Notes under the pieces: generated by a model
What the model was told of the DNA's origin: nothing
Databases searched by the model: none
Seen by the model: the letters and a program-made list of their open reading frames with translations, nothing else
From: a virus
DNA length: 64,000 nt
Direction: 5' to 3' (one strand)
Virus record (IMG/VR): IMGVR_UViG_3300033997_000035
Location: 1-64,000 of that record
In this document: positions 2,216-57,245 of the stretch, piece after piece
Numbering within the stretch: position 1 is the stretch's first letter
Layout: each line of letters starts with the position of its first letter
Program-made: the position numbers and the translations under genes

Positions 2216-2710
2216 ATGTTTATGGTGTTGCCTATAGAAAATTGGGCAATCCTATATAAGTTGTTCATGGTGATGACCGCAGTGTTTCACCCGAATGTCC
2301 AGATACGTAAGTTTTGTATCTGGTTTTCTGCCAGTTGGGTGGTAACGGGATTTACCAAGGCATATTATCTTGATGGTGGTAGTTGGTTCATGATGCAAAC
2401 AGTTCATGAGTTGATTACCATCCTCTTGGTAATTTCCTTCCTAAGCACCATGAAATTAACAAAGGTTATTATCTTAACACAGGCAATATTCTTTGTTGGG
2501 TTGAATACCCTGCAATGGCAGACACTTACGGATTGGTTTATGCCGCCAGATAGATACATTTGGTGGAATATGGTAGGTTTTGAACTTATATTATTTAGTC
2601 TGTGGGGGAGGCATGAAGTGCTTCTGTCAATCAAGAAGCATTGGACATTTGAGAATGTTACTATGGTGTATATCATCACCTTAATTATCCTGCTTGCAGG
2701 GAACTACTAA
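2216..2710 (+). CDS. integral membrane protein (4-5 TM segments)
   Basis: Hydrophobic stretches throughout the 164-aa ORF; tightly packed after the upstream stop. Confidence 0.6.
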   Translation: MFMVLPIENWAILYKLFMVMTAVFHPNVQIRKFCIWFSASWVVTGFTKAYYLDGGSWFMMQTVHELITILLVISFLSTMKLTKVIILTQAIFFVGLNTLQWQTLTDWFMPPDRYIWWNMVGFELILFSLWGRHEVLLSIKKHWTFENVTMVYIITLIILLAGNY

Positions 2711-2721
2711 AAGGAAACAAT

Positions 2722-3240
2722 ATGAAATACTTGATTATAACAGCTCTCCTGTTATGTAGCTTTTCATCCTCAGCTAATTATGTGCTTGAGACTATAGATA
2801 TTGTATCTAAAGATGAAATCTGTGGTGACAGGGTTAAAGTTGGTGATACAATCACTGTTCTAAGTAATGGTGGTGAGTTAAAGGAGGCACACTTAGCTGA
2901 TAAATGTATTCGTGATAAGAAAATTAAGCTTGTTATAATGAAGGCATTATCAGCAGCCAGTTACCTATCCCTATTCAGTGATGACGTGTGTCTATTATCC
3001 AGTAGTGATATTGGAACGCATACACCATACTTAGACCCTAGGAATGTCAAGGTGGATGAAACTCGGGATATTCTTAGGGCGGTATTTATGACACTAGTAG
3101 ATGATGCTAAGATTGAAGCTAAACATTCGTTACAATACGTTGGGTTCATGTTCTTGATTCCATCTACAGAGATGGGCTCTATACCACATGAGATGTTTAT
3201 TGAGATACTTGGTAACAAATACAAAGGAGTGTGCAAATGA
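2722..3240 (+). CDS. secreted/periplasmic hypothetical protein
   Basis: N-terminal signal peptide MKYLIITALLLCSFSSSA; AGGAAA RBS. Confidence 0.6.
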   Translation: MKYLIITALLLCSFSSSANYVLETIDIVSKDEICGDRVKVGDTITVLSNGGELKEAHLADKCIRDKKIKLVIMKALSAASYLSLFSDDVCLLSSSDIGTHTPYLDPRNVKVDETRDILRAVFMTLVDDAKIEAKHSLQYVGFMFLIPSTEMGSIPHEMFIEILGNKYKGVCK

Positions 3241-3569
3241 GTTTATTAGTATACAACTCTCACACAGACTTATGTGCACGATATAAGGAGTTTGACATCA
3301 CAGAGTTGATTACAGACTCCACACCTCCTAAATTTGAAGGGGATGTATCGTTCATACTAGATACTTGTGTGAGATTGAAAGGGTTGAATAAGATTCACTC
3401 TGATAGGTATCGCAGCACTAAAGTGATTGACTTATCTTTAGGTAATGATATAGTGTTCTCACAGTATGACGCTGAGGGATATATTATTGTGACTAAATCT
3501 GTGCACTCGGATACAGTAGATGTTTTATTGAAGCGTTATAGTGTGCATGGTGTGTTGGTGGAGGTGTAA
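3237..3569 (+). CDS. hypothetical protein
   Basis: ATG 7 nt after AGGAG (3225-3229), overlaps the upstream stop (ATGA). Confidence 0.55.
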   Translation: MSLLVYNSHTDLCARYKEFDITELITDSTPPKFEGDVSFILDTCVRLKGLNKIHSDRYRSTKVIDLSLGNDIVFSQYDAEGYIIVTKSVHSDTVDVLLKRYSVHGVLVEV

Positions 3570-3571
3570 TC

Positions 3572-3775
3572 GTGGAAGAAAGAGTAATGATGATTAGCCA
3601 CAATAAAATTCTCAACGAGGAGAAGACATCTGGCCCACACGTTAAGCGTAAAATTGACAAGTGGGTTCAGAGACAAAGGTCTGAGTCTGCCCTCGGATAC
3701 ATAACGTGGAGCACACGTCCTCTCACACCAGAGGAAGAATTGTTACCAACCGCTAGTTATATTTTAGGAGATTGA
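3572..3775 (+). CDS. hypothetical protein
   Basis: GTG start 6 nt after GGAGG; 67-aa ORF. Confidence 0.45.
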   Translation: MEERVMMISHNKILNEEKTSGPHVKRKIDKWVQRQRSESALGYITWSTRPLTPEEELLPTASYILGD

Positions 3776-3776
3776 C

Positions 3777-4091
3777 ATGACACAAATACCAAAACCCCTT
3801 GCAGTGGACGAACTTAAAGTTGGTATGCAAGTATATAACCCTGTAACTCAATGTATGCAGAAGGTAACTGATGTTGTCTCCTATGGAGAGACTACGTTAT
3901 TCTCCTTGGATGGATTGCAACACGGGCTGTATAATGGTGTGTATCGCACAGAGGAAGACCATGCAATCGTCCGTCGATGTAATAAGATGGCTAGGGTTAT
4001 TGGTAATACATTCGAATTCGGCGACATTCCTGCTGGTATTGCAGTCGAGGAGTTGGAAACTATTTGCAATATCCTCGATAAATATACTTGA
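3777..4091 (+). CDS. hypothetical protein
   Basis: 104-aa ORF immediately after the upstream stop. Confidence 0.55.
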   Translation: MTQIPKPLAVDELKVGMQVYNPVTQCMQKVTDVVSYGETTLFSLDGLQHGLYNGVYRTEEDHAIVRRCNKMARVIGNTFEFGDIPAGIAVEELETICNILDKYT

Positions 4092-4116
4092 CATTACAAT
4101 TTAACCACACTAGAAT
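4088..4116 (+). promoter_or_regulatory. sigma70-type promoter TTGACA-N17-TAGAAT
   Basis: TTGACA at 4088-4093, TAGAAT at 4111-4116, about 37 nt upstream of the recombinase start. Confidence 0.6.
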
Positions 4117-4152
4117 ACCTCCATTGATTAAGTTCTTTGGAGGTATTATTTT

Positions 4153-4857
4153 ATGAAGGTTGTAATCTATCGTCGTTTATCTAAAGAAGATAAGGTTAAA
4201 ACCCAGCACGGGTTTGACTCCCAGATGGCAGACATAAATTATTATCTAGCCACGTTACCAAATCATGAAGTTGTGGGGGACTTCTACGAATTCATTTCTG
4301 GTGCTGCCGACAATAAACCAGAATTGCAGAAGGCAATGAAAATTTGCCGTGAACAAAAGGCTATATTAGTTGTTGCCAAACTTGACCGTCTATCTCGTAG
4401 GGTATCACAAATTGCCCAATATATGGAGAGTGATGTCAAGTTTAGAGTGGCTAGAATGCCAAATGCTGAGAACTTACAATTACACATATTTGCGAGTTTG
4501 GCAGAGGCTGAGAGGAAGGATCTTCGTGACAGGACTAAACGTGCATGTGCAGTAGCTAAAGCCAAAGGTATACGTAGTGGTCGTGCATCACCTAATTATG
4601 GAATGAACTCTGGTAATGGACAGAAGGCCGTAGAAAGTGTGCTAAAAGCTCGTAGGGAGCAAGCTAAGGCTAAAACTGAGTATGTTGTGCCACATATACA
4701 CACAGCATTAAAGTATCTTGGTAAGCGCCCTACGCAAGCTAAAGTGGCACAGTTTCTCAATGATGCTAATGTGCCTACGCCTAATGGTAAAAATGTGTGG
4801 ACACAATCTGCTGTGTGTCGTATACTGGATAAACATAACATTAATTTATTTGCGTAG
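4153..4857 (+). CDS. small serine recombinase (resolvase/invertase family)
   Basis: N-terminal VVIYRRLSKED (catalytic Ser context), LVVAKLDRLSRR motif, basic C-terminal DNA-binding region. Confidence 0.75.
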   Translation: MKVVIYRRLSKEDKVKTQHGFDSQMADINYYLATLPNHEVVGDFYEFISGAADNKPELQKAMKICREQKAILVVAKLDRLSRRVSQIAQYMESDVKFRVARMPNAENLQLHIFASLAEAERKDLRDRTKRACAVAKAKGIRSGRASPNYGMNSGNGQKAVESVLKARREQAKAKTEYVVPHIHTALKYLGKRPTQAKVAQFLNDANVPTPNGKNVWTQSAVCRILDKHNINLFA

Positions 4858-6246: not shown

Positions 6247-7305
6247 ATGAGTCCACAAACACAGAAATTAGAATTAGTGGCCTACCGTAGCAAGAAAGGG
6301 TTGTATTATGCAACCACCAAATGGAACTACCGTAGGGAACGTGAGAGCATCTATAATGTAGACACAGTGAACGGCAAACCTCTAACCAAGAGTGAACATC
6401 GCGATGACTGGTATTTCTTAGAAGGAGAGGACACAATCACGTCCATTAAGAAACGTGTCCACGGTGGCTATGGTGCAGCAGCTTGGGTGCTACGAGATGA
6501 CTCTACTTTCATCGAAGGTGTTATTCCTAAAGTAGTTACACCAGAAGATGCTGATGAAATTAAAGATAGCGACGGGGATTTCTACTTTGGTTCTGGTAGT
6601 AAGTATTACTCCTATCGTGGACTCTACAAACGTGTTCGCGAGGAACTACCTTACGTTTTTGTAGATGTGGAGTTTCAAGTAGACTACAAAGGGACTATTG
6701 AGCATAGCTTGATTGAAAACAATTACAAGGATGCTAAGATTACCTTAATCCAAGGTTCTGGTTGGACAGAGAAACCTACAGAGGCTAAACTATCCGATAT
6801 CACGCATTACTATGAACTAGAGGAGTTGTTGACACCAGATTTGGTTATCCACAATCGTCCTTGCTACATTGGTAGTGATACAACATTTGCTATCGTGCGT
6901 AACCATATCAAGAAGAATATCAACCCCAAGTATGCACGTGTGACTAGCGATTATAATTTCTGTTTCACTGTGAAGAAACGTGTGCAGATTAAGCCCTATG
7001 TTTACAAAACTGAAATTAAGAAAAGTAACGGGCGTAGTTACGCCAAACCACAATTCAAGTCTCAAACTATTGAAGCTAAGGAAGTGGAAATCTTCGAGAT
7101 GTGTCCTAGCAAGAAGTATCAAGACTACACACCAATTGCGGGATTCAAGGGTGAAAACTTGGCTGACTTGGTGGAGAACATTAAGCTATACTTAGACCAT
7201 CTTATGGATGTAATTAATGCACCTGTGCATGAGTGTGAGCATTGTGGTGGTTTGGGTTGCACAATTGAGAAGGTTGAATACATGAATGAACGTGGAGGTA
7301 AATAG
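6247..7305 (+). CDS. hypothetical protein with C-terminal CxxC cluster
   Basis: 352-aa ORF; C-terminal HECEHCGGLGC. Confidence 0.65.
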   Translation: MSPQTQKLELVAYRSKKGLYYATTKWNYRRERESIYNVDTVNGKPLTKSEHRDDWYFLEGEDTITSIKKRVHGGYGAAAWVLRDDSTFIEGVIPKVVTPEDADEIKDSDGDFYFGSGSKYYSYRGLYKRVREELPYVFVDVEFQVDYKGTIEHSLIENNYKDAKITLIQGSGWTEKPTEAKLSDITHYYELEELLTPDLVIHNRPCYIGSDTTFAIVRNHIKKNINPKYARVTSDYNFCFTVKKRVQIKPYVYKTEIKKSNGRSYAKPQFKSQTIEAKEVEIFEMCPSKKYQDYTPIAGFKGENLADLVENIKLYLDHLMDVINAPVHECEHCGGLGCTIEKVEYMNERGGK

Positions 7306-42073: not shown

Positions 42074-43219
42074 ATGCAATTTACATTTAACCCAGAAGTT
42101 CCAAAACAATCTCCACGTCCTCAGCAACAACGTGAAAGTAATGTTGATTGGGACAAGGTAAATGAATATCAAGCTAGTGTGCTTGGTATTGGTAAGCACA
42201 GCCTGATTGGTCGGATTGTGCAACTGTATGATTTGGGACTACAAGAACGTCAGGAAAAGTCTATCCCTTGGGATGCTACAAGTGAAAAAGACCACGGGTG
42301 GCGATTAGAGATTAACCCAGAAACTGGACTACAGAAAGATCCTTCTGCTAAAATCGAGATGGGTAAGTATAAGGGTAAAGAACAGGAGATCCTTACTTAC
42401 AAACCAACCGATGTTAGTCAGATGGCAATCGCTGTAGACTTCCCTGAGAAGATGATGAACTTATCCCAGTTCTTCAATCCCGAAGGTGAGCAAGTAGAAA
42501 AACCATTCCGTGATATTATTGGTCAAAATGGTTTTGGTGGTTTCCGAATTGTAGATGGTAATCGTGTGAACGTTATTGCACGTCCATTCAACTTGGCAGA
42601 GACCAACGTCAACCGTAATAAAAAGGATGCACCGTATCATTCTGCATTTGCTAAGAATGGTATGTTGTATGAACTTGCAGATTATTGTGGTGCGTTGGCA
42701 CCAGATGGTAACTTCCATATTGCAGATCTTACCAACCTGATTGGTAAAGTGTGTATGTTCGAAGTGGAAGTGAAGTGGAATGAGTGGAAGGATAAAAAAT
42801 CTGGGGAGACTAAGCGTAAGCTTGAAACTGATATTAAACCATCGGCACGTATGAGTCCTCGTGATGAAGCTTATTACAACTCAGACCTCAAACCCAAACT
42901 TGACGATGATGTATTAGGTGGCCTGTTGTTCCAAGGCGGTAACCGTGAACGAGATTTGAAGGAAGCTCGTGCTATTGTTATCAACACCATGTCATTGGCT
43001 AAGAACTGGAATGAGTCTAAGTTGAAGGCAGAATTAGAAGCTGTTCGTGCAGGTGGACAACAATCACCTTCGCAAACCCCTGTAGAAGCTCCTGAGAAGC
43101 ACGTAGCCGCGAGTTCTCAACCAGCCAATACGATGGTAGCACCGCAGCCTGTTAACTCAGTAGCGAGTGTTTCAGGTGGGTTGGACGAAGGTTGGGATGA
43201 CGATAAATACCCATTCTAA
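42074..43219 (+). CDS. ssDNA-binding-like protein with SSB-type acidic C-terminal tip
   Basis: C-terminus ...GWDDDKYPF resembles the DDDIPF tail of bacterial SSB and the acidic aromatic tail of T7 gp2.5. A Pro/Gln/Ala-rich linker precedes it. Lies in the replication block. Confidence 0.45.
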   Translation: MQFTFNPEVPKQSPRPQQQRESNVDWDKVNEYQASVLGIGKHSLIGRIVQLYDLGLQERQEKSIPWDATSEKDHGWRLEINPETGLQKDPSAKIEMGKYKGKEQEILTYKPTDVSQMAIAVDFPEKMMNLSQFFNPEGEQVEKPFRDIIGQNGFGGFRIVDGNRVNVIARPFNLAETNVNRNKKDAPYHSAFAKNGMLYELADYCGALAPDGNFHIADLTNLIGKVCMFEVEVKWNEWKDKKSGETKRKLETDIKPSARMSPRDEAYYNSDLKPKLDDDVLGGLLFQGGNRERDLKEARAIVINTMSLAKNWNESKLKAELEAVRAGGQQSPSQTPVEAPEKHVAASSQPANTMVAPQPVNSVASVSGGLDEGWDDDKYPF

Positions 43220-43480
43220 GGATGTCGTCAATAAACTTTGTGAATTGCTGGGAAATTAGACGATAAATTCATCGTATTGTCTGACAATCAGCAGGGAAGG
43301 TTACACTATGTAGTGTAACACCCTCCAGAGACTAACCTGATAAGGTGTAGGGGAGATTTCCTCGAAGCGCAAAAGTTGACTTCTGTCAGCCATGATATAG
43401 TCCACCACACGTTAGTGTGATCCCGTTTTAAGATGATATTCACTACTATCAATTACTAAATTGTATATGGTGTAATATGA

Positions 43481-43510
43481 AAAACCCGCCTGAGAAGGCG
43501 GGTTTTGTTT
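43481..43510. terminator. bidirectional intrinsic terminator
   Basis: AACCCGCC-TGAGAA-GGCGGGTT with flanking A-run and T-run, between convergent blocks. Confidence 0.75.
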
Positions 43511-45130
43511 TTAGATAATAGAGTAATCTACTCCACTGAGAATAACCGTATCAGTAGCGGAAGACTTTTCAAGAATCACGTTACCACCAGTTTGTATTAG
43601 CAGACTTTCAGTGCTAAATGTGCCGCCAGTTATGCATACTACTGGAATTCGACACTCTACAACAGGTCTATATCTAACATCTAAGGTTAATATTTTTACT
43701 GGGGTTACTGGAGGGCTTCCTATTTGCCCTGCAAACGCTACTCTAGTTAACGAATGACATCTTATTGATGTGTCATATGCCACCCCTGAATCTGGTGTTA
43801 AAGGTGCTAGGATGGTTTCATCCGAGGTTCGAGGCATTGTTCCACCGAAAACACCGCTGCCATTTCCGGCAAACTTTTTCAGTTTTTGCAATTCGTAGTC
43901 AACGGAAGAATAGATCGCAAACTGACCGTTATTCTCGGCGTTTACATACCCTAACCTCGCAAAACCGTCTAAAGAATATCCATTGCCTGAGCAGTTATCG
44001 CAAAAACCATCGCCAAGATTTACGCCATTGTTATCACCAGCCGCTGCTGTAACCTTAACCCCAGTATATGATCCGCCACCAGCATGCCCTGCGCCGCGGA
44101 TCATATGTGAATCACATTTGAAGCTCAATACACCCGCACCGTCTATAGTAACAGCGTCTTGTTTTGTAAGATAGGAGCTAAAACTACCTACAGAAGCCCT
44201 TAGCGTACTAGCACCAGCCGTGCTAGTACGAAACAGCCAATCACATCCCGGGTCTGCGCAAACTTGAGCAATATGTACGCCATTGACATCAGCGTCATCC
44301 GCCTCAATTAGCGTGCCTGCCCCGTACCCGCCTAGCGCTTGTGCAAGCGTCTGAGATACTTGAGTACCAGTCACAGCGTCATACGAATTAGATTTAAGCA
44401 ATACCCCCGCGAAAAAAGCACCCACACCACGTAATTTACCTACCTGAATTGGGCCACACTTAAGAACTACAGGAGTGTTAGAATATACTCCGCTGATGTT
44501 ATCGACTATACATGGAGGATCCAAACCTTCTAAAAGTACCGCATGGCCTGCCGTGGTTGGCGTTTTGCACATGCCGATGACGTTTAAAAGTGTCCAACCA
44601 GTTAATCTACTCCCAAGTGCTACAGTCCCGTCGGATTTTGCATAGTTACTAACTACAATTGCATCGCTTTCAACAGCTTTACCTTCTGATATAGTGTACG
44701 CACCACAGTCAACACCCAAGTCTACTAGAGCCCCACGCTTAATGTTGTAAGAGTGATACCTTCCTTCTAATATTGTCCCACCAATTAGCCTATCAGCGGT
44801 ATTATCAGGGCACCCAGAGCCAAATATATAAACCCCTTCACGCAAATTAACAGGATCTGGGGATTTGAATCTACCTACGGGTAATTCAATAGCAATGTCC
44901 CCTGTTGTAGATGTTAAAATTTCATCAATTCCAGCATAGGTTGAGACAATCTTTTTGGGGATATTGTCAATAAAATCCTGTACACTTCCACCGTTTGCAT
45001 CCAGCACATTATCTGCATCAACTTTAAAATTCCCTTTCTTTAACTTCTTCCCCTCCCCACCTTGGTCTATCAGGAGTAAATCATTATCCCCGACTATTGT
45101 AGCTTCTACCAAACTATCTATTGTAGCCAT
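43511..45130 (-). CDS. tail spike / receptor-binding protein (beta-helix, pectate-lyase-like)
   Basis: 539 aa, Gly/Ser/Thr-rich repetitive beta-strand composition, N-terminal adaptor-like segment, located beside tail genes. Confidence 0.5.
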   Translation of the reverse strand: MATIDSLVEATIVGDNDLLLIDQGGEGKKLKKGNFKVDADNVLDANGGSVQDFIDNIPKKIVSTYAGIDEILTSTTGDIAIELPVGRFKSPDPVNLREGVYIFGSGCPDNTADRLIGGTILEGRYHSYNIKRGALVDLGVDCGAYTISEGKAVESDAIVVSNYAKSDGTVALGSRLTGWTLLNVIGMCKTPTTAGHAVLLEGLDPPCIVDNISGVYSNTPVVLKCGPIQVGKLRGVGAFFAGVLLKSNSYDAVTGTQVSQTLAQALGGYGAGTLIEADDADVNGVHIAQVCADPGCDWLFRTSTAGASTLRASVGSFSSYLTKQDAVTIDGAGVLSFKCDSHMIRGAGHAGGGSYTGVKVTAAAGDNNGVNLGDGFCDNCSGNGYSLDGFARLGYVNAENNGQFAIYSSVDYELQKLKKFAGNGSGVFGGTMPRTSDETILAPLTPDSGVAYDTSIRCHSLTRVAFAGQIGSPPVTPVKILTLDVRYRPVVECRIPVVCITGGTFSTESLLIQTGGNVILEKSSATDTVILSGVDYSII

Positions 45131-52159: not shown

Positions 52160-52752
52160 TATCCACCTCCTGTTGGTGTAGTTGTTTCACCAATCTTATT
52201 AGTCTCAATATATTTCTGAGTGAGGTTGTAGCCATCAATCTGAGTCTTAGTTCCAGTTTTAGGGTCAGTAGTTGAAGCCAGAGAACTGCCTGTAGCTGCA
52301 TTAGGCTTCACTGTCACCGCAGTAAGTGTATCCAACTGAGCTTTCATTCCGAAATCTAGTTGCTGAACACCTAGGTTAACTGCAAGAGAGTCCTTTCCCT
52401 CTTTAACGTAATTGAATGATGTTATTACACAGTTTGCGAAGGATGGTACTAATCCATCAGCAGTTCCGTACAGTGTGAACACAACCGCTTCGTCCATACA
52501 CTGGTTTATTAGCTGGACATATTTCTCAGGGGTTTGAGTTTCATTGCGTATCTTAGTGGAGTTGATGGTGCCAACAATGTTGATGTTAGGTAAGTCGGGG
52601 TGATAATGATCACTCACTTTCACCCCACTCTGTAGTGTGTTCATAGTAGTGGAGGCAGAACGCATCACCTCCATACTGCTTGTCACATCTAACATTAACA
52701 ACGTATTACCATCAGCAGCTAAAAAGAATACCACATCTTTTAAAGTTGCCAT
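52159..52752 (-). CDS. tail-associated protein (DNA-circulation/distal tail position)
   Basis: 197 aa, immediately downstream of the tape measure gene. Confidence 0.45.
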   Translation of the reverse strand: MATLKDVVFFLAADGNTLLMLDVTSSMEVMRSASTTMNTLQSGVKVSDHYHPDLPNINIVGTINSTKIRNETQTPEKYVQLINQCMDEAVVFTLYGTADGLVPSFANCVITSFNYVKEGKDSLAVNLGVQQLDFGMKAQLDTLTAVTVKPNAATGSSLASTTDPKTGTKTQIDGYNLTQKYIETNKIGETTTPTGGG

Positions 52753-55700
52753 TAGTTTTGCACCATTTTAATCTCTGATTGAATTGCGTCTTTGATTGAT
52801 GGATTCTGTGCAACAATCTCACCAACTTTCTGACCATCAATATTGACTGTCCCAGTAATGGATAGTTTGTTACCCATGAATTGACCAGCGTTAATAGCAC
52901 TACCCATACCACTTGCAACAAACCCACCAAGGTTACCTTTGCTGAACATATTCATCAATGACATCATCATACTGTCACCAACACTCATGTTTGAAGTATT
53001 GGCAGCACCAAGCATGTGTTGTGCTACGTTGGCACCAGTGTTATTGGCCGCACCTTTACGTGGATCATATAGCAAGCCAATCTTATTCTTACTGAATAGC
53101 AAGTTATCCAATTCCTCAGCCCAGAAAGCCACTTCCTTGATTAAGTCTAGAAGTATTACGAACTGACCTACCAGAGGGAGAGCCTTTAGTGCCTTGCTGC
53201 CGAACAGTTTATAGATGTAGAGTGCAGGGCCAGCCATTGCAACTAAGAAAGCGTAACTGTCTCCTAACCCCTTAGAGATACTATTCAATACCTCGCCTAC
53301 AGATACTAGCATAGGTGTTACCCATTTAACACCATCAGCAATTAAGCTGAACACTGACCCAATTATCTTACCAAGTGCTTCCCACAGTGGCTTGAGCTTA
53401 ACCACTGACTCAGCCATAGCATTGAATAACTCTGTCAAACCCTCACCGAAACCAGACTTGAATATAATATTACCAGCTTCTTGGAATGAGAACATCAATC
53501 TGTTCATTGCAACACGGTTAGATAACATGGCCTTATCCAGACCTCCGTTAGCACGTGCAGCCGCAGACATGTTACGAGCAAAGTGTGGTAATACCTTTTC
53601 AGATATTAGACCACCTTTCATCTGCAAGTCCATCATAGACTTTACAGTGCCGTCTACCGTAAGACCAGCATCCTGAGCAGACTTCGCCATGATTTGTCAT
53701 GTAGTTTAATGTGTTCGTTAAACACACCCATTTAATAGCTATATATTTTCATATATAGGTCGGACTATATCATCACCATTTAAGGTGCTAAACTTTTCGA
53801 TGCCACTTGGTCACCTACACCCTACGGGTTAGTCTCTGGACGAGGGTTGTACCTCGCTGCTGATCACCATATTAAAGGCTTCCAGCAATTAATTCAGTTA
53901 TTCGATATACATTTCTGTATAAAGCCACACAAATTTATGGCATTTGGCAAAACTTCCATTATTGTTTTATACAACCATCGTTAGTGGCTGTCCACCCTTT
54001 CAGGTGGTATCGGACTATATCTTCACATTTAGTATGTGATTACCTTTTCGACACACTTGTGCCTACACTATAAATAGCTAGTCTCTGGAGGATTCCCACC
54101 TGTTAGATGGAGTCATTTTATAATCCTTAGAAATCCATGTCCAAGTTGCACCACATCTTAAGTGTAGCAGTGCATCCTTAGTTATGTTGGTGTGCTTCCT
54201 AATATATTCATTATTCTTCCCATCTTGAATCATTTCACAAACTTTACGAATAAACTGCTCATCATAATCTGAGCCTCGTAGGTGTTTATGAGGTTGACCT
54301 TCAATGGAGTGCAAATTATTTTCGAGACTTGTAACCCATTCTAAATTAGAAACGTGGTCATTTGTCCTATCGAAATCTTTGTGGTTAATTACTAAGCCTT
54401 CTTCGTACGTATCTTGAAGATATGCTAGTCCAACCATTCTTGCACAACGTCGGTGGTAATATTTTCTATTTTTATAAAGATTAACCACCCTGTAACCATC
54501 TATGTTAAGTTGGCTTTTTATTGGATGACCTTTACTGTTAAAAATATTACCGCTCTCGTCTATAGTATAATTTGGAAACTCTTCTATGACTCTCATGTTA
54601 CCTCCTGTTAAGAAGGCAGTGGATATTCCCTGCGAATTACCATCATGCCTTGATATAAGTTTACCATCTTACATCATTTTGAACAAGCATTAAGGCTTCT
54701 CGCAATTAGATAATTTTATAATGGGCAAAGTTTACCCATTTGGAGCTTTAATTCCTCTAGTTAAATCAATGACTTACGTTACCAAGTCACTACATCAAAG
54801 TCTTTAGATGTAACCTACATTACTGTAGGGCTAGACCATATCATAACCTCTCAAGAGGTTTTCACTGTTTCGGCTCTACTTAGAACCTACACCTTATCAG
54901 GTTGGTCTTTGAAGGTTGCCACAAAGTGACCTTCCCTGCTGATTGTCCGTTTAAGGATGTCCCAGCAATTAAATGAATTATTGATAACTGTCACCAGTTA
55001 AAAGGCCAAGGGTTTAGCCGATACGACTCCTTTTGACATCCAATTTGTTAAGTAAATCAATGACTTACTCCGTGTTAAACACGCTCTATGTTACCATAGA
55101 AGTTCAGACTATATCTTAACCTTCAACTGAATGGTCAGGTCATTTACGCTTCGAGGTATAAACCTCTACATCCTTACGGATTAGTCTTTACACGTTCCTC
55201 TTTAGAGGCTTCGCTAGGTATTATCCTGCTAGGACGTCCACCTAATTCATAAATTTAATTATTCGTTATATTTCTATAACGCCAAACAATGATTTATTTG
55301 TTGTAAAGCGTTTACCTGTGGACTATATCTTAATCCCGAAGGATTCCTTATTTTCGAGGAGATTCCCCTACATTCTTACGAATTAGTCTCTGAAGGTGGT
55401 TACCTAGTAACCGTCCATGCTGATTGTCTAATTAGATTTCCCAGCAATTAACAAGGTTTTTCATTAATATTACTATTAAAGGAGCCATAAACGTTTAGCT
55501 CTAGTACTCTCCGCACTACTCAACCCCAGCAAAGTACTCATTTCTGAAACGGCACTGAAGGCTGCCTTCGTATCTTCCAGACTCATCTTCCCTCTGGCCG
55601 ATAACATCTTGGCAAAGTTCTTACCACTGTCTGCCAAACTCAACCCTAGTCGATACGACTCATCCCTGACAAATTGAAAGTTACTACCTGCTTCCTGAGC

Positions 55701-56366
55701 ACTAGAACTTACAGCAAGTAATGTGTTGTTCACACTTTCAAAGTCCTGACCTACACGTGTAATACCCGCTGTCAATCCAGCGACAGCAAACGCACTCACC
55801 ATATTGCCAGCAAATTGCTTACTGGATGCTGTCATACGCTGCATGAGGAAGTTCTGCTTGTTGAGACTACGTTCCTGTTCCTTCATCACACGTAATCGTT
55901 CGCGTTCCTTAGCCACCAATAACCGTACTTCATCTGCTGTTTTAGCTGCTGCTACAGCACGTCTCAACTCCTGTTGTGCAGTGGCATTTACTGACCCAGC
56001 TTGATATGTCCTTAAGTTTAACGAAGACCGACCAAACGTAGTTTGTGCCTGAGATAATCCTGTCTGCCGTCTTGCTTCCATTCGTGCTAGGCGATCCATT
56101 TCCTTCTCACGGGCTTTGACGTGGGCATTTGCTGGTCTTTGTGCTATCCTTTGGAGTTCCTTTTCCTTTTTTATCTGCAAATTATATTCACGATTTAAAT
56201 GGCGCTCTCTTTCCATAGCATGAGCGTTCATCAGTTTCTGCTTTGCTACACTTTGCCTAGCTTCTTTCTGCTCAAAATTGGTCATCATCTTCTGAAACTT
56301 TTCCATCTTCTTGATGGCAGTATCAAAGTCTATACCAATCGTATACTGTACAAGGTTTTCAGCCAT
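52752..56366 (-). CDS. tail tape measure protein, six exons; proposed mature CDS join(56366..55497,55315..55296,55040..55016,54754..54734,53956..53937,53697..52752), 633 aa
   Basis: Track ORFs 55476..56366 (coiled-coil N-terminal half) and 52752..53690 (Gly/Ala/Met-rich C-terminal half) are TMP halves. Predicted splicing adds VNALQQM-MSKGVVSA-ELKLQMG-EVLPNAI-QI in frame. Position is between the frameshifted chaperones and the baseplate genes. Confidence 0.8.
53698..53936 (-). mobile_element. group I intron 5 (239 nt, ORF-less)
   Basis: P1 GCCAU/GUGGC, P10 ACAAAU/AUUUGU contiguous with P1, P2 UAUACA-GAAA-UGUAUA, P3 CUGA/UUAG, P4 UGCUG/CAGCA, P7 CCAGAGACUAA ... AUGAUAUAGUCC, P9 CUAUAUAU-GAAA-AUAUAUAG, omega-G at 53698. 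Confidence 0.8.
53957..54733 (-). mobile_element. group I intron 4 (777 nt) carrying an HNH homing endonuclease ORF
   Basis: P1 AAUGGGU/GCCCAUU (7 bp, U.G at the splice site), P10 GAAGUUU/AAACUUU, P3 AUUAUC/GGUAAU, P4 UGCGA/UCGCA (compensatory). The ORF is inserted before P7 and its stop codon lies inside CCAGAGACUAG. P9 CCACCU-GAAA-GGGUGG. Confidence 0.8.
54078..54596 (-). CDS. intron-encoded HNH homing endonuclease (NUMOD4 + HNH_3 type)
   Basis: FPNYTIDESGNIFN...GYRVVNL (NUMOD4-like) and INHKDFDRTNDHVSNLEWVTSLENNLHS (HNH). AGGAGG RBS 4 nt upstream. Confidence 0.85.
   Translation of the reverse strand: MRVIEEFPNYTIDESGNIFNSKGHPIKSQLNIDGYRVVNLYKNRKYYHRRCARMVGLAYLQDTYEEGLVINHKDFDRTNDHVSNLEWVTSLENNLHSIEGQPHKHLRGSDYDEQFIRKVCEMIQDGKNNEYIRKHTNITKDALLHLRCGATWTWISKDYKMTPSNRWESSRD
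54755..55015 (-). mobile_element. group I intron 3 (261 nt, ORF-less)
   Basis: P1 GGCU/GGCC, P2 UAACUG-GUGA-CAGUUA, P3 UUCA/UGAA, P4 UGCUG/CAGCA, P7 AAAGACCAA ... AUGAUAUGGUCU (compensatory U->C / A->G), P9 CCUACA-GUAA-UGUAGG. The 3' splice site is tentative within a few nt. Confidence 0.7.
55041..55295 (-). mobile_element. group I intron 2 (255 nt, ORF-less)
   Basis: P1 CAAAU/GUUUG, P10 GAUG/CAUU contiguous with P1, P2 GUUAUA-GAAA-UAUAAC, P3 UUUAUG/CGUAAA, P4 UAGGU/ACCUA (compensatory), P7 AAAGACUAA ... AAGAUAUAGUCU, P9 UCUAUG-GUAA-CAUAGA. Confidence 0.75.
55316..55496 (-). mobile_element. group I intron 1 (181 nt, ORF-less, no P9)
   Basis: Follows exon GAGCU. P1 GAGCU/GGCUC with U.G, P10 GUAAACG/CGUUUAU, P2 UUAAUA-GUAA-UAUUAA, P3 CCUU/AAGG, J3/4-P4 UUAAUUGCUGGG, P4' CAGCA, P7 CAGAGACUAA ... 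AAGAUAUAGUCC, omega-G at 55316. Confidence 0.8.
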
Positions 56367-56381
56367 TGTAATACCTCGTTG

Positions 56382-57175
56382 TTATGCTGAATTCTTACCA
56401 TAAGTATTTAAAGCTTTATTTTTTGCTTCTAAGCTCTTATAATCTAATTCGGCAGCTTGTTTTAAGTCATTGTAATAATCTATCAATGACGATAATTCTA
56501 AAAACTCCTCTACACTGTATTCCCATTTGAGTGTGCTTAATGTCTCTGAACAATACTCAGAGTTTGCCACCATAAAAAACCATGAATCTACTTCAAAGTT
56601 CTCCCTCTGTTTGCTGGCATACTCTACTACTTCGTATTGGTGTCGTCTTTCAAATCGTTTACGGAGTTCAGCATTGTGTCTAGCACTTCTTTCATTTTCG
56701 GAGTGAGCAACACCATCAGCTTCTCGATCAAAGTACGAAGTGTAGCGTTGCCCCACAAAAAATCCTTGAAGTTCTCCACGAACAACCAACACAATACTGT
56801 TAAGTAATCACCTTGGTTATCGTCAAAGTAATCTTCAACCTCCTCCATTGTCATTTCTTTATCTTTAACCATCAAGCTACCTAACATCTTACGGCTGATG
56901 TCATCGAAATGATCTTCTGAAATGTGCACTGTTAGCATGTTCAGCATTTTACCAAACATATTAGAATGTGGTTCCAGTAATTGCTCCTCACGATACTGGT
57001 GCTCCATCATAGCATCCATACCACTCCCTAACGCTGGTGTTAACGCTGTGAGCAATTTAAATCCTTCCTTAATACTATCGTAGGTGGCTAGCTTTCTAGC
57101 CTTGTACATGCGTTCTACGCCGTCTGAGCCTATGATTAGCTTACTAATAACTTTCTTGTTATATCTTACTGACAT
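56382..57175 (-). CDS. tail assembly chaperone, -1 frameshift fusion product (GT-like)
   Basis: The zero frame GAT-TTT-TTG contains slippery U UUU UUG. The -1 frame continues as ORF 56382..56792. Canonical position between the tube and tape measure genes. Confidence 0.6.
56627..57175 (-). CDS. tail assembly chaperone (G-like, zero-frame product)
   Basis: Start at MSVRYNKK after AGGAGAAAG. The longer start in the track runs through the tube-gene terminator. Confidence 0.65.
   Translation of the reverse strand: MSVRYNKKVISKLIIGSDGVERMYKARKLATYDSIKEGFKLLTALTPALGSGMDAMMEHQYREEQLLEPHSNMFGKMLNMLTVHISEDHFDDISRKMLGSLMVKDKEMTMEEVEDYFDDNQGDYLTVLCWLFVENFKDFLWGNATLRTLIEKLMVLLTPKMKEVLDTMLNSVNDLKDDTNTK
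56756..56762 (-). promoter_or_regulatory. -1 programmed ribosomal frameshift slippery heptamer TTTTTTG
   Basis: X XXY YYZ in the zero frame of the chaperone ORF, inside the 166-nt overlap of the two ORFs. Confidence 0.6.
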
Positions 57176-57186
57176 ACTTTCTCCTA

Positions 57187-57225
57187 AAATAAAAAGGGAG
57201 GCTCTGACCACAAGCCACGCCTCCC
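57187..57225 (-). terminator. intrinsic terminator / attenuator after the tube gene
   Basis: GGGAGGC-N16-GCCTCCC followed by TTTTTATTTT on the minus strand. Confidence 0.6.
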
Positions 57226-57245
57226 TATCGAACATTAAATTGTAA

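Follow-up and report, generated by a model that had tools for sequence, protein, structure and literature searches.

The tape measure protein (TMP) gene of an uncultured marine myovirus, whose relatives are Shewanella phages 1/4 and 1/40, appears to be interrupted by five tandem group I introns. These lie on the minus strand, from 55496 to 53698, in a 64,000-nt stretch of IMG/VR record IMGVR_UViG_3300033997_000035 (hereafter the window, to which coordinates refer unless another locus is named). The coding segments between them are micro-exons of a few codons each (Table 1). Judged by covariance-model score, covariation, and P1/P10 geometry, all five elements are predicted bona fide group I introns, and ordinary group I self-splicing, repeated five times, would very probably restore a single TMP mRNA.

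An earlier note on this DNA had placed a break in the TMP reading frame at 55497 and a restart at 53697, and the list of open reading frames (ORFs) and the sequence agree. The minus-strand ORF 56366-55476 passes 55497, reads six codons inside intron 1, and then meets a stop; the frame picks up again at 53697 and continues down to 52752. Excision of the predicted introns would join six exons into an in-frame ORF of 1905 nt, encoding 634 aa (633 aa with an alternative intron 3 junction), with insertion points at nt 870, 890, 915, 939, and 959 of the mature mRNA. The spliced protein gives one uninterrupted match to Pfam TMP_3 (PF20155; residues 201-391, 56.2 bits, cut-off 41), together with a match to TIGR02675 (residues 278-326, 29.7 bits, cut-off 21.35) that spans all of the junctions. 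Full-length, uninterrupted TMPs are found in Vibrio phages RYC, 1.063.O, and 501E54-1, and in the metagenomic contig L020. The intron-less homologues are single proteins of 650-697 aa, and the window's spliced peptide (with a 24-nt exon 4) aligns gap-free with the TMPs of all three phages and L020. These homologues bear out the proposal, made in the earlier note, that splicing recreates a conserved tape-measure motif in frame: the motif reads LLGLSAEESNRAINALQQMMSKGVVSAEELKLQMGEVLPNAIQIMAKSAGDAG in phage 501E54-1 and LLGLSSAESTRAVNALQQMMSKGVVSAEELKLQMGEVLPNAIQIMAKSAQ in the window's spliced product, whose junction-spanning peptides include AVNALQQMMSK and LQMGEVLPNAIQIMAK.

The earlier note also described five group I cores with their elements in canonical order, a description that the sequence and the Rfam covariance model RF00028 (gathering score, 50 bits) both support: introns 1, 2, 3, and 5 reach at least the gathering score, and intron 4 matches in part. 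A scan of the whole window at gathering returned 55301-55084 (71.4 bits), 55025-54813 (68.5 bits), and 53946-53740 (67.9 bits). Intron 1 was not picked up in that scan; searched alone it scores 51.3 bits (E = 1.5e-12), and its homologues in phages 1/4 (L001) and 1/40 (L002) and in loci L010, L017, and L018 score 57-59 bits. It is a minimal example of a group I intron: an internal P9 is absent, and the 3' splice site falls 4 nt past P7'. Intron 4 contains an ORF, and a permissive scan finds two partial matches flanking it (54714-54546 and 54025-53993; 17.7 and 22.3 bits); an ORF-less homologue in L024, the window's closest relative, scores 73.1 bits. The listed P3, P4, and P7 variants, the GNRA loops, and the AAA that starts each intron after an exon U are all present in the sequence. 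The exact motif GATATAGTC occurs five times in the 64 kb, four of them inside the 1.8-kb array; intron 3 has GATATGGTC.

Covariation was evaluated on an alignment of 18 introns without ORFs, drawn from the window and six relatives. From it, RNAalifold independently recovers P4, P5, P6, P6a, P7, P7.1, P7.2, and P8. Standard pairs occupy 93.1% of cells, against 74.2 +/- 1.2% after column shuffling (a level matched in 0 of 500 shuffles) and 36-41% with partners shifted by 1-3 columns. Double-sided changes appear in 24 of the 34 pairs, and the covariation score is 0.535, versus 0.06-0.14 with slid partners. P3 was examined separately because it is pseudoknotted with P7: a helix of 4-7 bp is present in 18 of 18 introns, those of the window's four having 6-7 bp, and compensatory changes occur inside the class of introns that share the insertion site of intron 3 (UUCAUU/AGUGAA, UUUCUU/AGGAAA, UCUCUU/AGGAGA). 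The claim that such changes reflect RNA structure rather than simple DNA repeats thus holds across the 18-intron set. Two covarying hairpins between the 5' strand of P7 and P3' (alignment columns 153-171 and 175-203) are a subgroup IA feature; these extra hairpins, P7.1 and P7.2, reportedly define the subgroup, and from them the introns are assigned as IA-type.

The splice sites show a consistent geometry. In all five introns P1 comprises 4-7 bp and closes on the U.G pair noted earlier, in which the exon U pairs with a G of the internal guide sequence; P10 begins precisely at exon base +1 (lengths in Table 1). It follows that each micro-exon is split into a portion that pairs in P10 of the upstream intron and a portion that pairs in P1 of the downstream intron. 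The 3'-terminal base (omega) is G in introns 1, 2, 4, and 5; intron 3 has A at the orthologous position and an in-frame G 3 nt downstream.

Table 1. Predicted introns and exons of the TMP gene, and the intron-borne gene, in window coordinates. Site, insertion site numbered on the intron-less reference; P1 and P10, guide helices; bits, RF00028 score.
Feature	Position	Strand	Length	Site	Remarks
TMP exon 1	55497..56366	-	870 nt, 290 aa		ends ...STRA, last base T; from ORF list and spliced alignment (site 96)
Intron 1	55316..55496	-	181 nt	96	ORF-less; 51.3 bits; P1 GAGCU/GGCUC with U.G; omega G; P10 7 bp
Micro-exon 2	55296..55315	-	20 nt		VNALQQ + AT
Intron 2	55041..55295	-	255 nt	116	ORF-less; 71.4 bits; P1 CAAAU/GUUUG; omega G; P10 4 bp
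Micro-exon 3	55016..55040	-	25 nt		G + MSKGVVSA
Intron 3	54758..55015	-	258 nt (261 nt if 3' end 54755)	141	ORF-less; 68.5 bits; P1 GGCU/GGCC; P10 4 bp
Micro-exon 4	54734..54757	-	24 nt		EELKLQMG (21 nt, ELKLQMG, with the earlier note's 3' splice site)
Intron 4	53957..54733	-	777 nt	165	contains HNH ORF; partial RF00028 matches; P1 7 bp; omega G; P10 7 bp
HNH homing endonuclease gene (putative)	54078..54596	-	172 aa		in intron 4 (intron positions 138-656)
Micro-exon 5	53937..53956	-	20 nt		EVLPNA + AT
Intron 5	53698..53936	-	239 nt	185	ORF-less; 67.9 bits; P1 GCCAU/GUGGC; omega G; P10 6 bp
TMP exon 6	52752..53697	-	946 nt including stop codon		A + QIMAKSAQDAG...; from ORF list and spliced alignment

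Scans of viral and metagenome contigs gave 10 and 5 related loci, respectively, and most relatives were obtained through exact-protein look-ups; L030, whose locus ends at a contig edge, was left out of the comparison. An intron-less profile was aligned through 14 related loci by spliced-alignment dynamic programming, in which introns follow T, end in G (with A penalised), and measure at least 120 nt. Calls were corrected by eye for spurious introns outside nt 90-190 and for a 7-nt exon in L010, L017, and L018. Seven insertion sites were identified within about 90 nt, at reference nt 96, 116, 123, 141, 149, 165, and 185, with the same spliced peptide in every locus. Where H denotes an HNH ORF, the occupied sites are 96, 116, 141, 165H, and 185 in the window; 96, 116, 141, and 165H in phage 1/4; 96, 116, and 149H in phage 1/40; 96, 123, 149H, 165, and 185 in L024; 96, 116, 123, 141, and 149H in L017; 96, 116, 123, and 149H in L010 and L018; 116, 149H, and 165 in L025; 141 and 165H in L022; 116, 141, and 165H in L031; 123, 149, and 165 in L019; and a single site in L026 (165), L027 (149H), and L006 (149). 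Rfam confirmed tandem group I matches in the relatives' loci. Among 78 protein clusters matching the junction region, there is no gene product of a close relative that crosses the junction, and the ends and starts of the fragments vary.

The tightest packing is in L017 (JGI Ga0210043_1000053, 2459-4457), where inspection by eye gives five introns with micro-exons of 20, 7 (GATGAGT), 18, and 8 (GAGGAATT) nt. In the 7-nt exon, the bases that pair in P10 with the intron before it overlap those that pair in P1 with the intron after it; the two helices are therefore mutually exclusive. HNH genes are confined to sites 149 and 165 in the loci sampled, and the long site-123 intron of L019 may carry an ORF. 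Each array of at least two introns examined includes an ORF-bearing intron: HNH at 149 or 165, or, for L019, the candidate at site 123.

Core identity between same-site introns of different genomes is 69-95%, versus 50-66% between introns at different sites (the nearest site pairs being 96 with 141, and 165 with 185). Introns therefore group by site rather than by genome, which rules out recent local duplication as the source of the five. The micro-exons behave as coding sequence: when intron-bearing genomes are compared between sites 96 and 185, their codons differ by 864 synonymous and 248 non-synonymous changes, including TCA/TCG to AGT serine switches in both directions. Such a pattern would not be expected unless the micro-exons were translated in the frame of the TMP, and is thus a sign of purifying selection on them. 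At the nucleotide level, no part of the gene is better conserved than the stretch that holds the intron cluster, with 57-70% invariant columns as against 3-47% in the rest.

Three observations on related sequences may be recorded here. The motif GTAAGT(C/T)ATTGA(T/A)TT(A)AC occurs close to the 3' ends of site-116, site-141, and site-165 introns (window 55041-55075 and 54758-54790, minus strand; L001 5905-5936), and also at the 5' start of the relatives' site-149 introns (L002 4877-4897); common descent, a P9.x element, and an endonuclease-related sequence are candidate explanations. Relatives of intron 5 (window 53698-53940, minus strand), at roughly 70-76% identity, lie in or beside the DNA polymerase genes of Vibrio phages qdvp001 and IBT_VpB-34 and Escherichia phages A73 and W70, so that one intron family sits in different genes of different phages. 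Finally, L029 contains a stand-alone 151-aa ORF (878-1333) that consists of the conserved TMP motif region alone, uninterrupted; its neighbours on the 1.6-kb metagenomic contig are small, unrelated genes and not a tail module. No intron was detected at this ORF, which may have been left behind by recombination or may act as a decoy copy of the homing target. It (P0015) was dropped as an intron-less reference, since it is not a full TMP, and the full-length TMPs of the Vibrio phages were used.

The ORF of intron 4 is, by homology, an I-HmuI-like HNH homing endonuclease. It matches Pfam HNH_3 (PF13392; 29.4 bits, cut-off 24.8, E = 6e-7) and, over residues 9-93, the intron-encoded nicking endonuclease I-HmuI of Bacillus phage SPO1 (PDB 1U3E, E = 4.4e-11). 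An AGGAGG lies 5 nt ahead of its ATG, and its TAG stop falls within the 5' strand of P7. Such a gene would make intron 4 mobile. Among relatives, the site-165 intron is itself present or absent, and occurs both with and without the ORF, which would lend homing indirect support. The first 41 nt and last 135 nt of intron 4 share 93-94% identity with the ORF-less intron that L024 has at this site (6553-6771); a single block, made up of the P4-P6 region (P4 is UGCGA/UCGCA rather than UGCUG/CAGCA) and the HNH gene, differs. Intron 4 is a mosaic, which suggests that P4-P6 plus the homing endonuclease gene (HEG) was exchanged as a module.

The 3' end of intron 3 poses the one substantial question of splice-site assignment. 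The junctions 55497/55315, 55296/55040, 54734/53956, and 53937/53697, listed in the earlier note, are retained, as are its micro-exon lengths of 20, 25, and 20 nt. For intron 3 it had joined 55016 to 54754, an intron/exon boundary (54755/54754) at which the intron ends in G, exon 4 is 21 nt, and the product reads SAELKLQ, dropping a conserved Glu. The orthologous boundary, 54758/54757, gives a 24-nt exon 4 and SAEELKLQ, with A as the last intron base; the junction is thus ambiguous between 55016/54754 and 55016/54757, and orthologues, P10, and protein favor the latter. Alignment to intron-less TMP homologues confirmed the predicted junction peptide except at this point, where it was one Glu short: the match is gap-free only with the 24-nt exon. 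The ambiguity came to light through artefacts at site 141, in both the window and phage 1/4, when the spliced alignment limited omega to G.

Splicing at 54755/54754, through the first in-frame G past a mutated omega, would yield a TMP lacking one Glu from an otherwise identical array; we put the chance of this just short of even, the two boundaries being roughly equally likely. Exon ligation reportedly needs a 3'-terminal G in the G-site of P7, the expectation of poor ligation with a terminal A stemming from work on the Tetrahymena and T4 introns. Intron 3 retains an intact guanosine-binding G-C pair in P7, so canonical chemistry predicts poor ligation at the terminal A, whereas the G at +3 preserves the frame; and, as the omega A is common to the window and the cultured phage 1/4, some workable solution must exist. 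Against this boundary stand the protein, the guide helix, and the orthologues. SAEELKLQ is present in 16 of 16 other sequences compared, without length variation. P10 is GAGG/CCUU (4 bp) at 54758/54757, versus just 2 bp at 54755/54754; read by hand, it is GAGGA/UCCUU (5 bp) at the orthologous site in phage 1/4, and covaries with GAAG/CUUU in L022. The orthologous introns of L017 (...AATTCG/GAGGAATT), L022 (...AACACGG/GAAGAATT), and L031 (...AACATGG/GAGGAATT) all split before GAGGAA or GAAGAA, with omega G; in the window and phage 1/4 (...AACTA/GAGGAATT) the exon sequence is kept and the omega base is A (window 54758, minus strand; L001 5124). Intron 3 thus represents either a natural non-G omega or a splice site moved by 3 nt, and its second splicing step may be inefficient or shifted.

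Several points weigh against the reading of the whole array as five functional introns. The omega A of intron 3 accompanies an intact guanosine-binding pair; intron 1 lacks P9 and barely exceeds the gathering score, and its minimum free energy folding, evaluated alone, is no better than that of shuffled sequences (z = -1.25), an uninformative result of a kind usual for pseudoknotted ribozymes; no spliced transcript of the array is represented among 5.8 billion proteins; and, for the origin of the array, co-conversion and hitch-hiking are proposed from the spacing of the introns. We infer splicing itself, splicing order, endonuclease activity, and co-conversion. If one or more elements were decayed relics that no longer splice, TMP function would have to come from two separately translated polypeptides, a reading to which the separate CDS (coding sequence) entries for the two halves in the GenBank records of phages 1/4 and 1/40, an in-frame ATG at 53690, and the absence of a canonical omega G in intron 3 lend some color. 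It is nonetheless very improbable: the catalytic core helices are all intact and covarying, the micro-exons show purifying selection at the protein level and keep the reading frame in all combinations of occupied sites, no purine-rich Shine-Dalgarno sequence precedes the 53690 ATG (...AACTACATGACAAATCATG), and the intron-less homologues are single proteins. Shared core motifs and similar unit lengths might also recall a tandem DNA repeat or an assembly artefact. The chance of this is negligible, since the site-wise pattern of identity, in which units resemble same-site introns from independent genomes and other samples more than they resemble one another, already refutes it; moreover, the same arrays are present in two cultured, fully sequenced phages.

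Taking five-fold self-splicing as the preferred reading, each intron would use a P1 helix closed by U.G to find its own 5' splice site, and P10, from exon base +1, to align its own 3' exon. After transcription, the five ribozymes would excise themselves with a guanosine cofactor, leaving the six exons joined into the 1905-nt ORF. The array presumably arose by HNH-driven homing into the most conserved stretch of the TMP gene, conserved stretches being a classic target of homing elements. The four ORF-less introns, at most 70 nt from intron 4, were probably carried along by co-conversion during homing, given that all sites fall within about 90 nt. The varying combinations in which the seven sites are occupied point to repeated, independent colonization of a homing hot spot and not to local duplication. 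HEG-plus and HEG-minus forms at sites 149 and 165 would be visible stages in a cycle of invasion, HEG loss, and re-invasion, of which the swapped P4-P6-plus-HEG module (intron 4 versus L024) is a further sign.

A broader scenario may be sketched, although we consider it rather doubtful as a whole. The 90-nt motif would be a battleground on which homing endonucleases from co-infecting marine myoviruses compete. Introns without an ORF would be kept as a form of intron immunity; that they persist by destroying the targets of rival endonucleases is speculative. They would stack to saturation (seven sites, micro-exons as short as 7 nt), a burden tolerated because few TMP copies are needed per virion; such low copy number may make five sequential splicings affordable. 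The A-ended natural intron of the window and phage 1/4 would be a by-product.

How unusual is such an array? Fungal mitochondrial cox1 and other organellar genes contain many group I introns and very short exons, and their introns, distributed along the entire gene, require maturases or host factors; the window, in contrast, has five compact phage-type introns packed in 89 nt of a viral gene. The DNA polymerase introns of phages SPO1 and SP82 (I-HmuI and I-HmuII) resemble intron 4 in combining a phage group I intron with an HNH nicking endonuclease gene, assigned here by homology; theirs is a single intron in a DNA polymerase gene, as opposed to an array in a TMP gene. TMP genes themselves are known hosts: prophages of the Bacillus cereus group carry TMP-IVS1, TMP-IVS2, and TMP-IVS3 at three sites, with at most two per gene (Tourasse & Kolsto 2008, PMC2504315), and TMP introns occur also in Lactobacillus phage JCL1032 and phage phiSH1 (PMC2504315). 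Like those of the window, the B. cereus-group and JCL1032 introns are IA-type, lie in conserved parts of the TMP, exist in ORF-less and HEG-bearing forms, and include related introns adapted to nearby sites through changes in P1 and P10; the TMP family and motif are different, and micro-exon stacking is not described there. JCL1032 was considered as a possible case of an intron at the window's motif and rejected: its annotated split CDS breaks at ...ELANRGI, outside the QQMMSKGVVSAEELKLQMGEVLPNAI motif, and a different TMP motif is interrupted.

The nearest parallel for several introns in one gene is orf142, the tail tube gene of Staphylococcus phage Twort, which has three group I introns and shows exon skipping (Landthaler & Shub 1999, as cited in PMC11878797). 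As far as that citation describes it, orf142 shares with the window several self-splicing group IA introns in one late structural gene of a myovirus, short internal exons, and the potential for exon skipping. It differs in number (three introns, versus five in 89 nt here and seven sites across the family), and the window belongs to a Gram-negative, marine phage group, with internal exons of 20-25 nt (7-8 nt in L017). As TMP introns, and phage genes with as many as three introns, are on record (PMC2504315, PMC11878797), no new mechanism is at issue. For phages 1/4 and 1/40, introns in TerL have been noted (PMC8541194); a literature search found no description of their TMP intron arrays or of the window's cluster. 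The earlier note knew of no other example of five introns in so short a stretch. The family's use of this stretch is the densest intron packing found reported for a phage gene; relatives such as L017 have the same or tighter arrays. The elements are thus ordinary members of known families; their packing (five introns in 89 nt, seven sites, micro-exons of 7-25 nt) is extreme and apparently undescribed.

Elsewhere in the window, a sixth group I intron-like element lies at 43204-43412 on the plus strand, at the far 3' end of a 381-aa ORF (42074-43219). It scores 43.1 bits with RF00028 (E = 3e-9), under the gathering score. By eye, P1 is GACGAU/GUCGUC with a U.G at 43203/43204, the P4/P7 core is intact, an omega G lies near 43412, and P10 is AUCC/GGAU. 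Splicing would turn the C-terminus ...DDDKYPF* into ...DDDIPF*, with a last exon of three codons. A bidirectional terminator hairpin follows at about 43484-43512.

The order of tail genes in L024, L025, and phage 1/4 is sheath, tube, chaperone, TMP, and Dit-like. Immediately upstream of the window's TMP gene (56382-57235, minus strand) are two overlapping ORFs, of 202 and 136 aa, that correspond to the tail assembly chaperone pair; phages 1/4 and 1/40 have this pair entered as one joined, frameshifted CDS. Automatic annotation renders the TMP of every relative examined as a truncated tape measure protein plus a hypothetical protein; other split genes of these phages are likewise mis-annotated, and re-annotation is due.

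If splicing proceeds as predicted, a single mRNA folds five adjacent ribozymes whose guide helices share exons of 20-25 nt (7-8 nt in relatives). The array would then offer a natural setting in which to study how ribozymes fold during transcription, in what order introns are spliced, and whether exons are skipped, and the omega A of intron 3 raises a small, sharp biochemical question. The polymorphism of the family, with its seven sites, HEG-plus and HEG-minus forms, and swapped intron modules, offers a system for the study of homing-element competition, saturation, and target protection.

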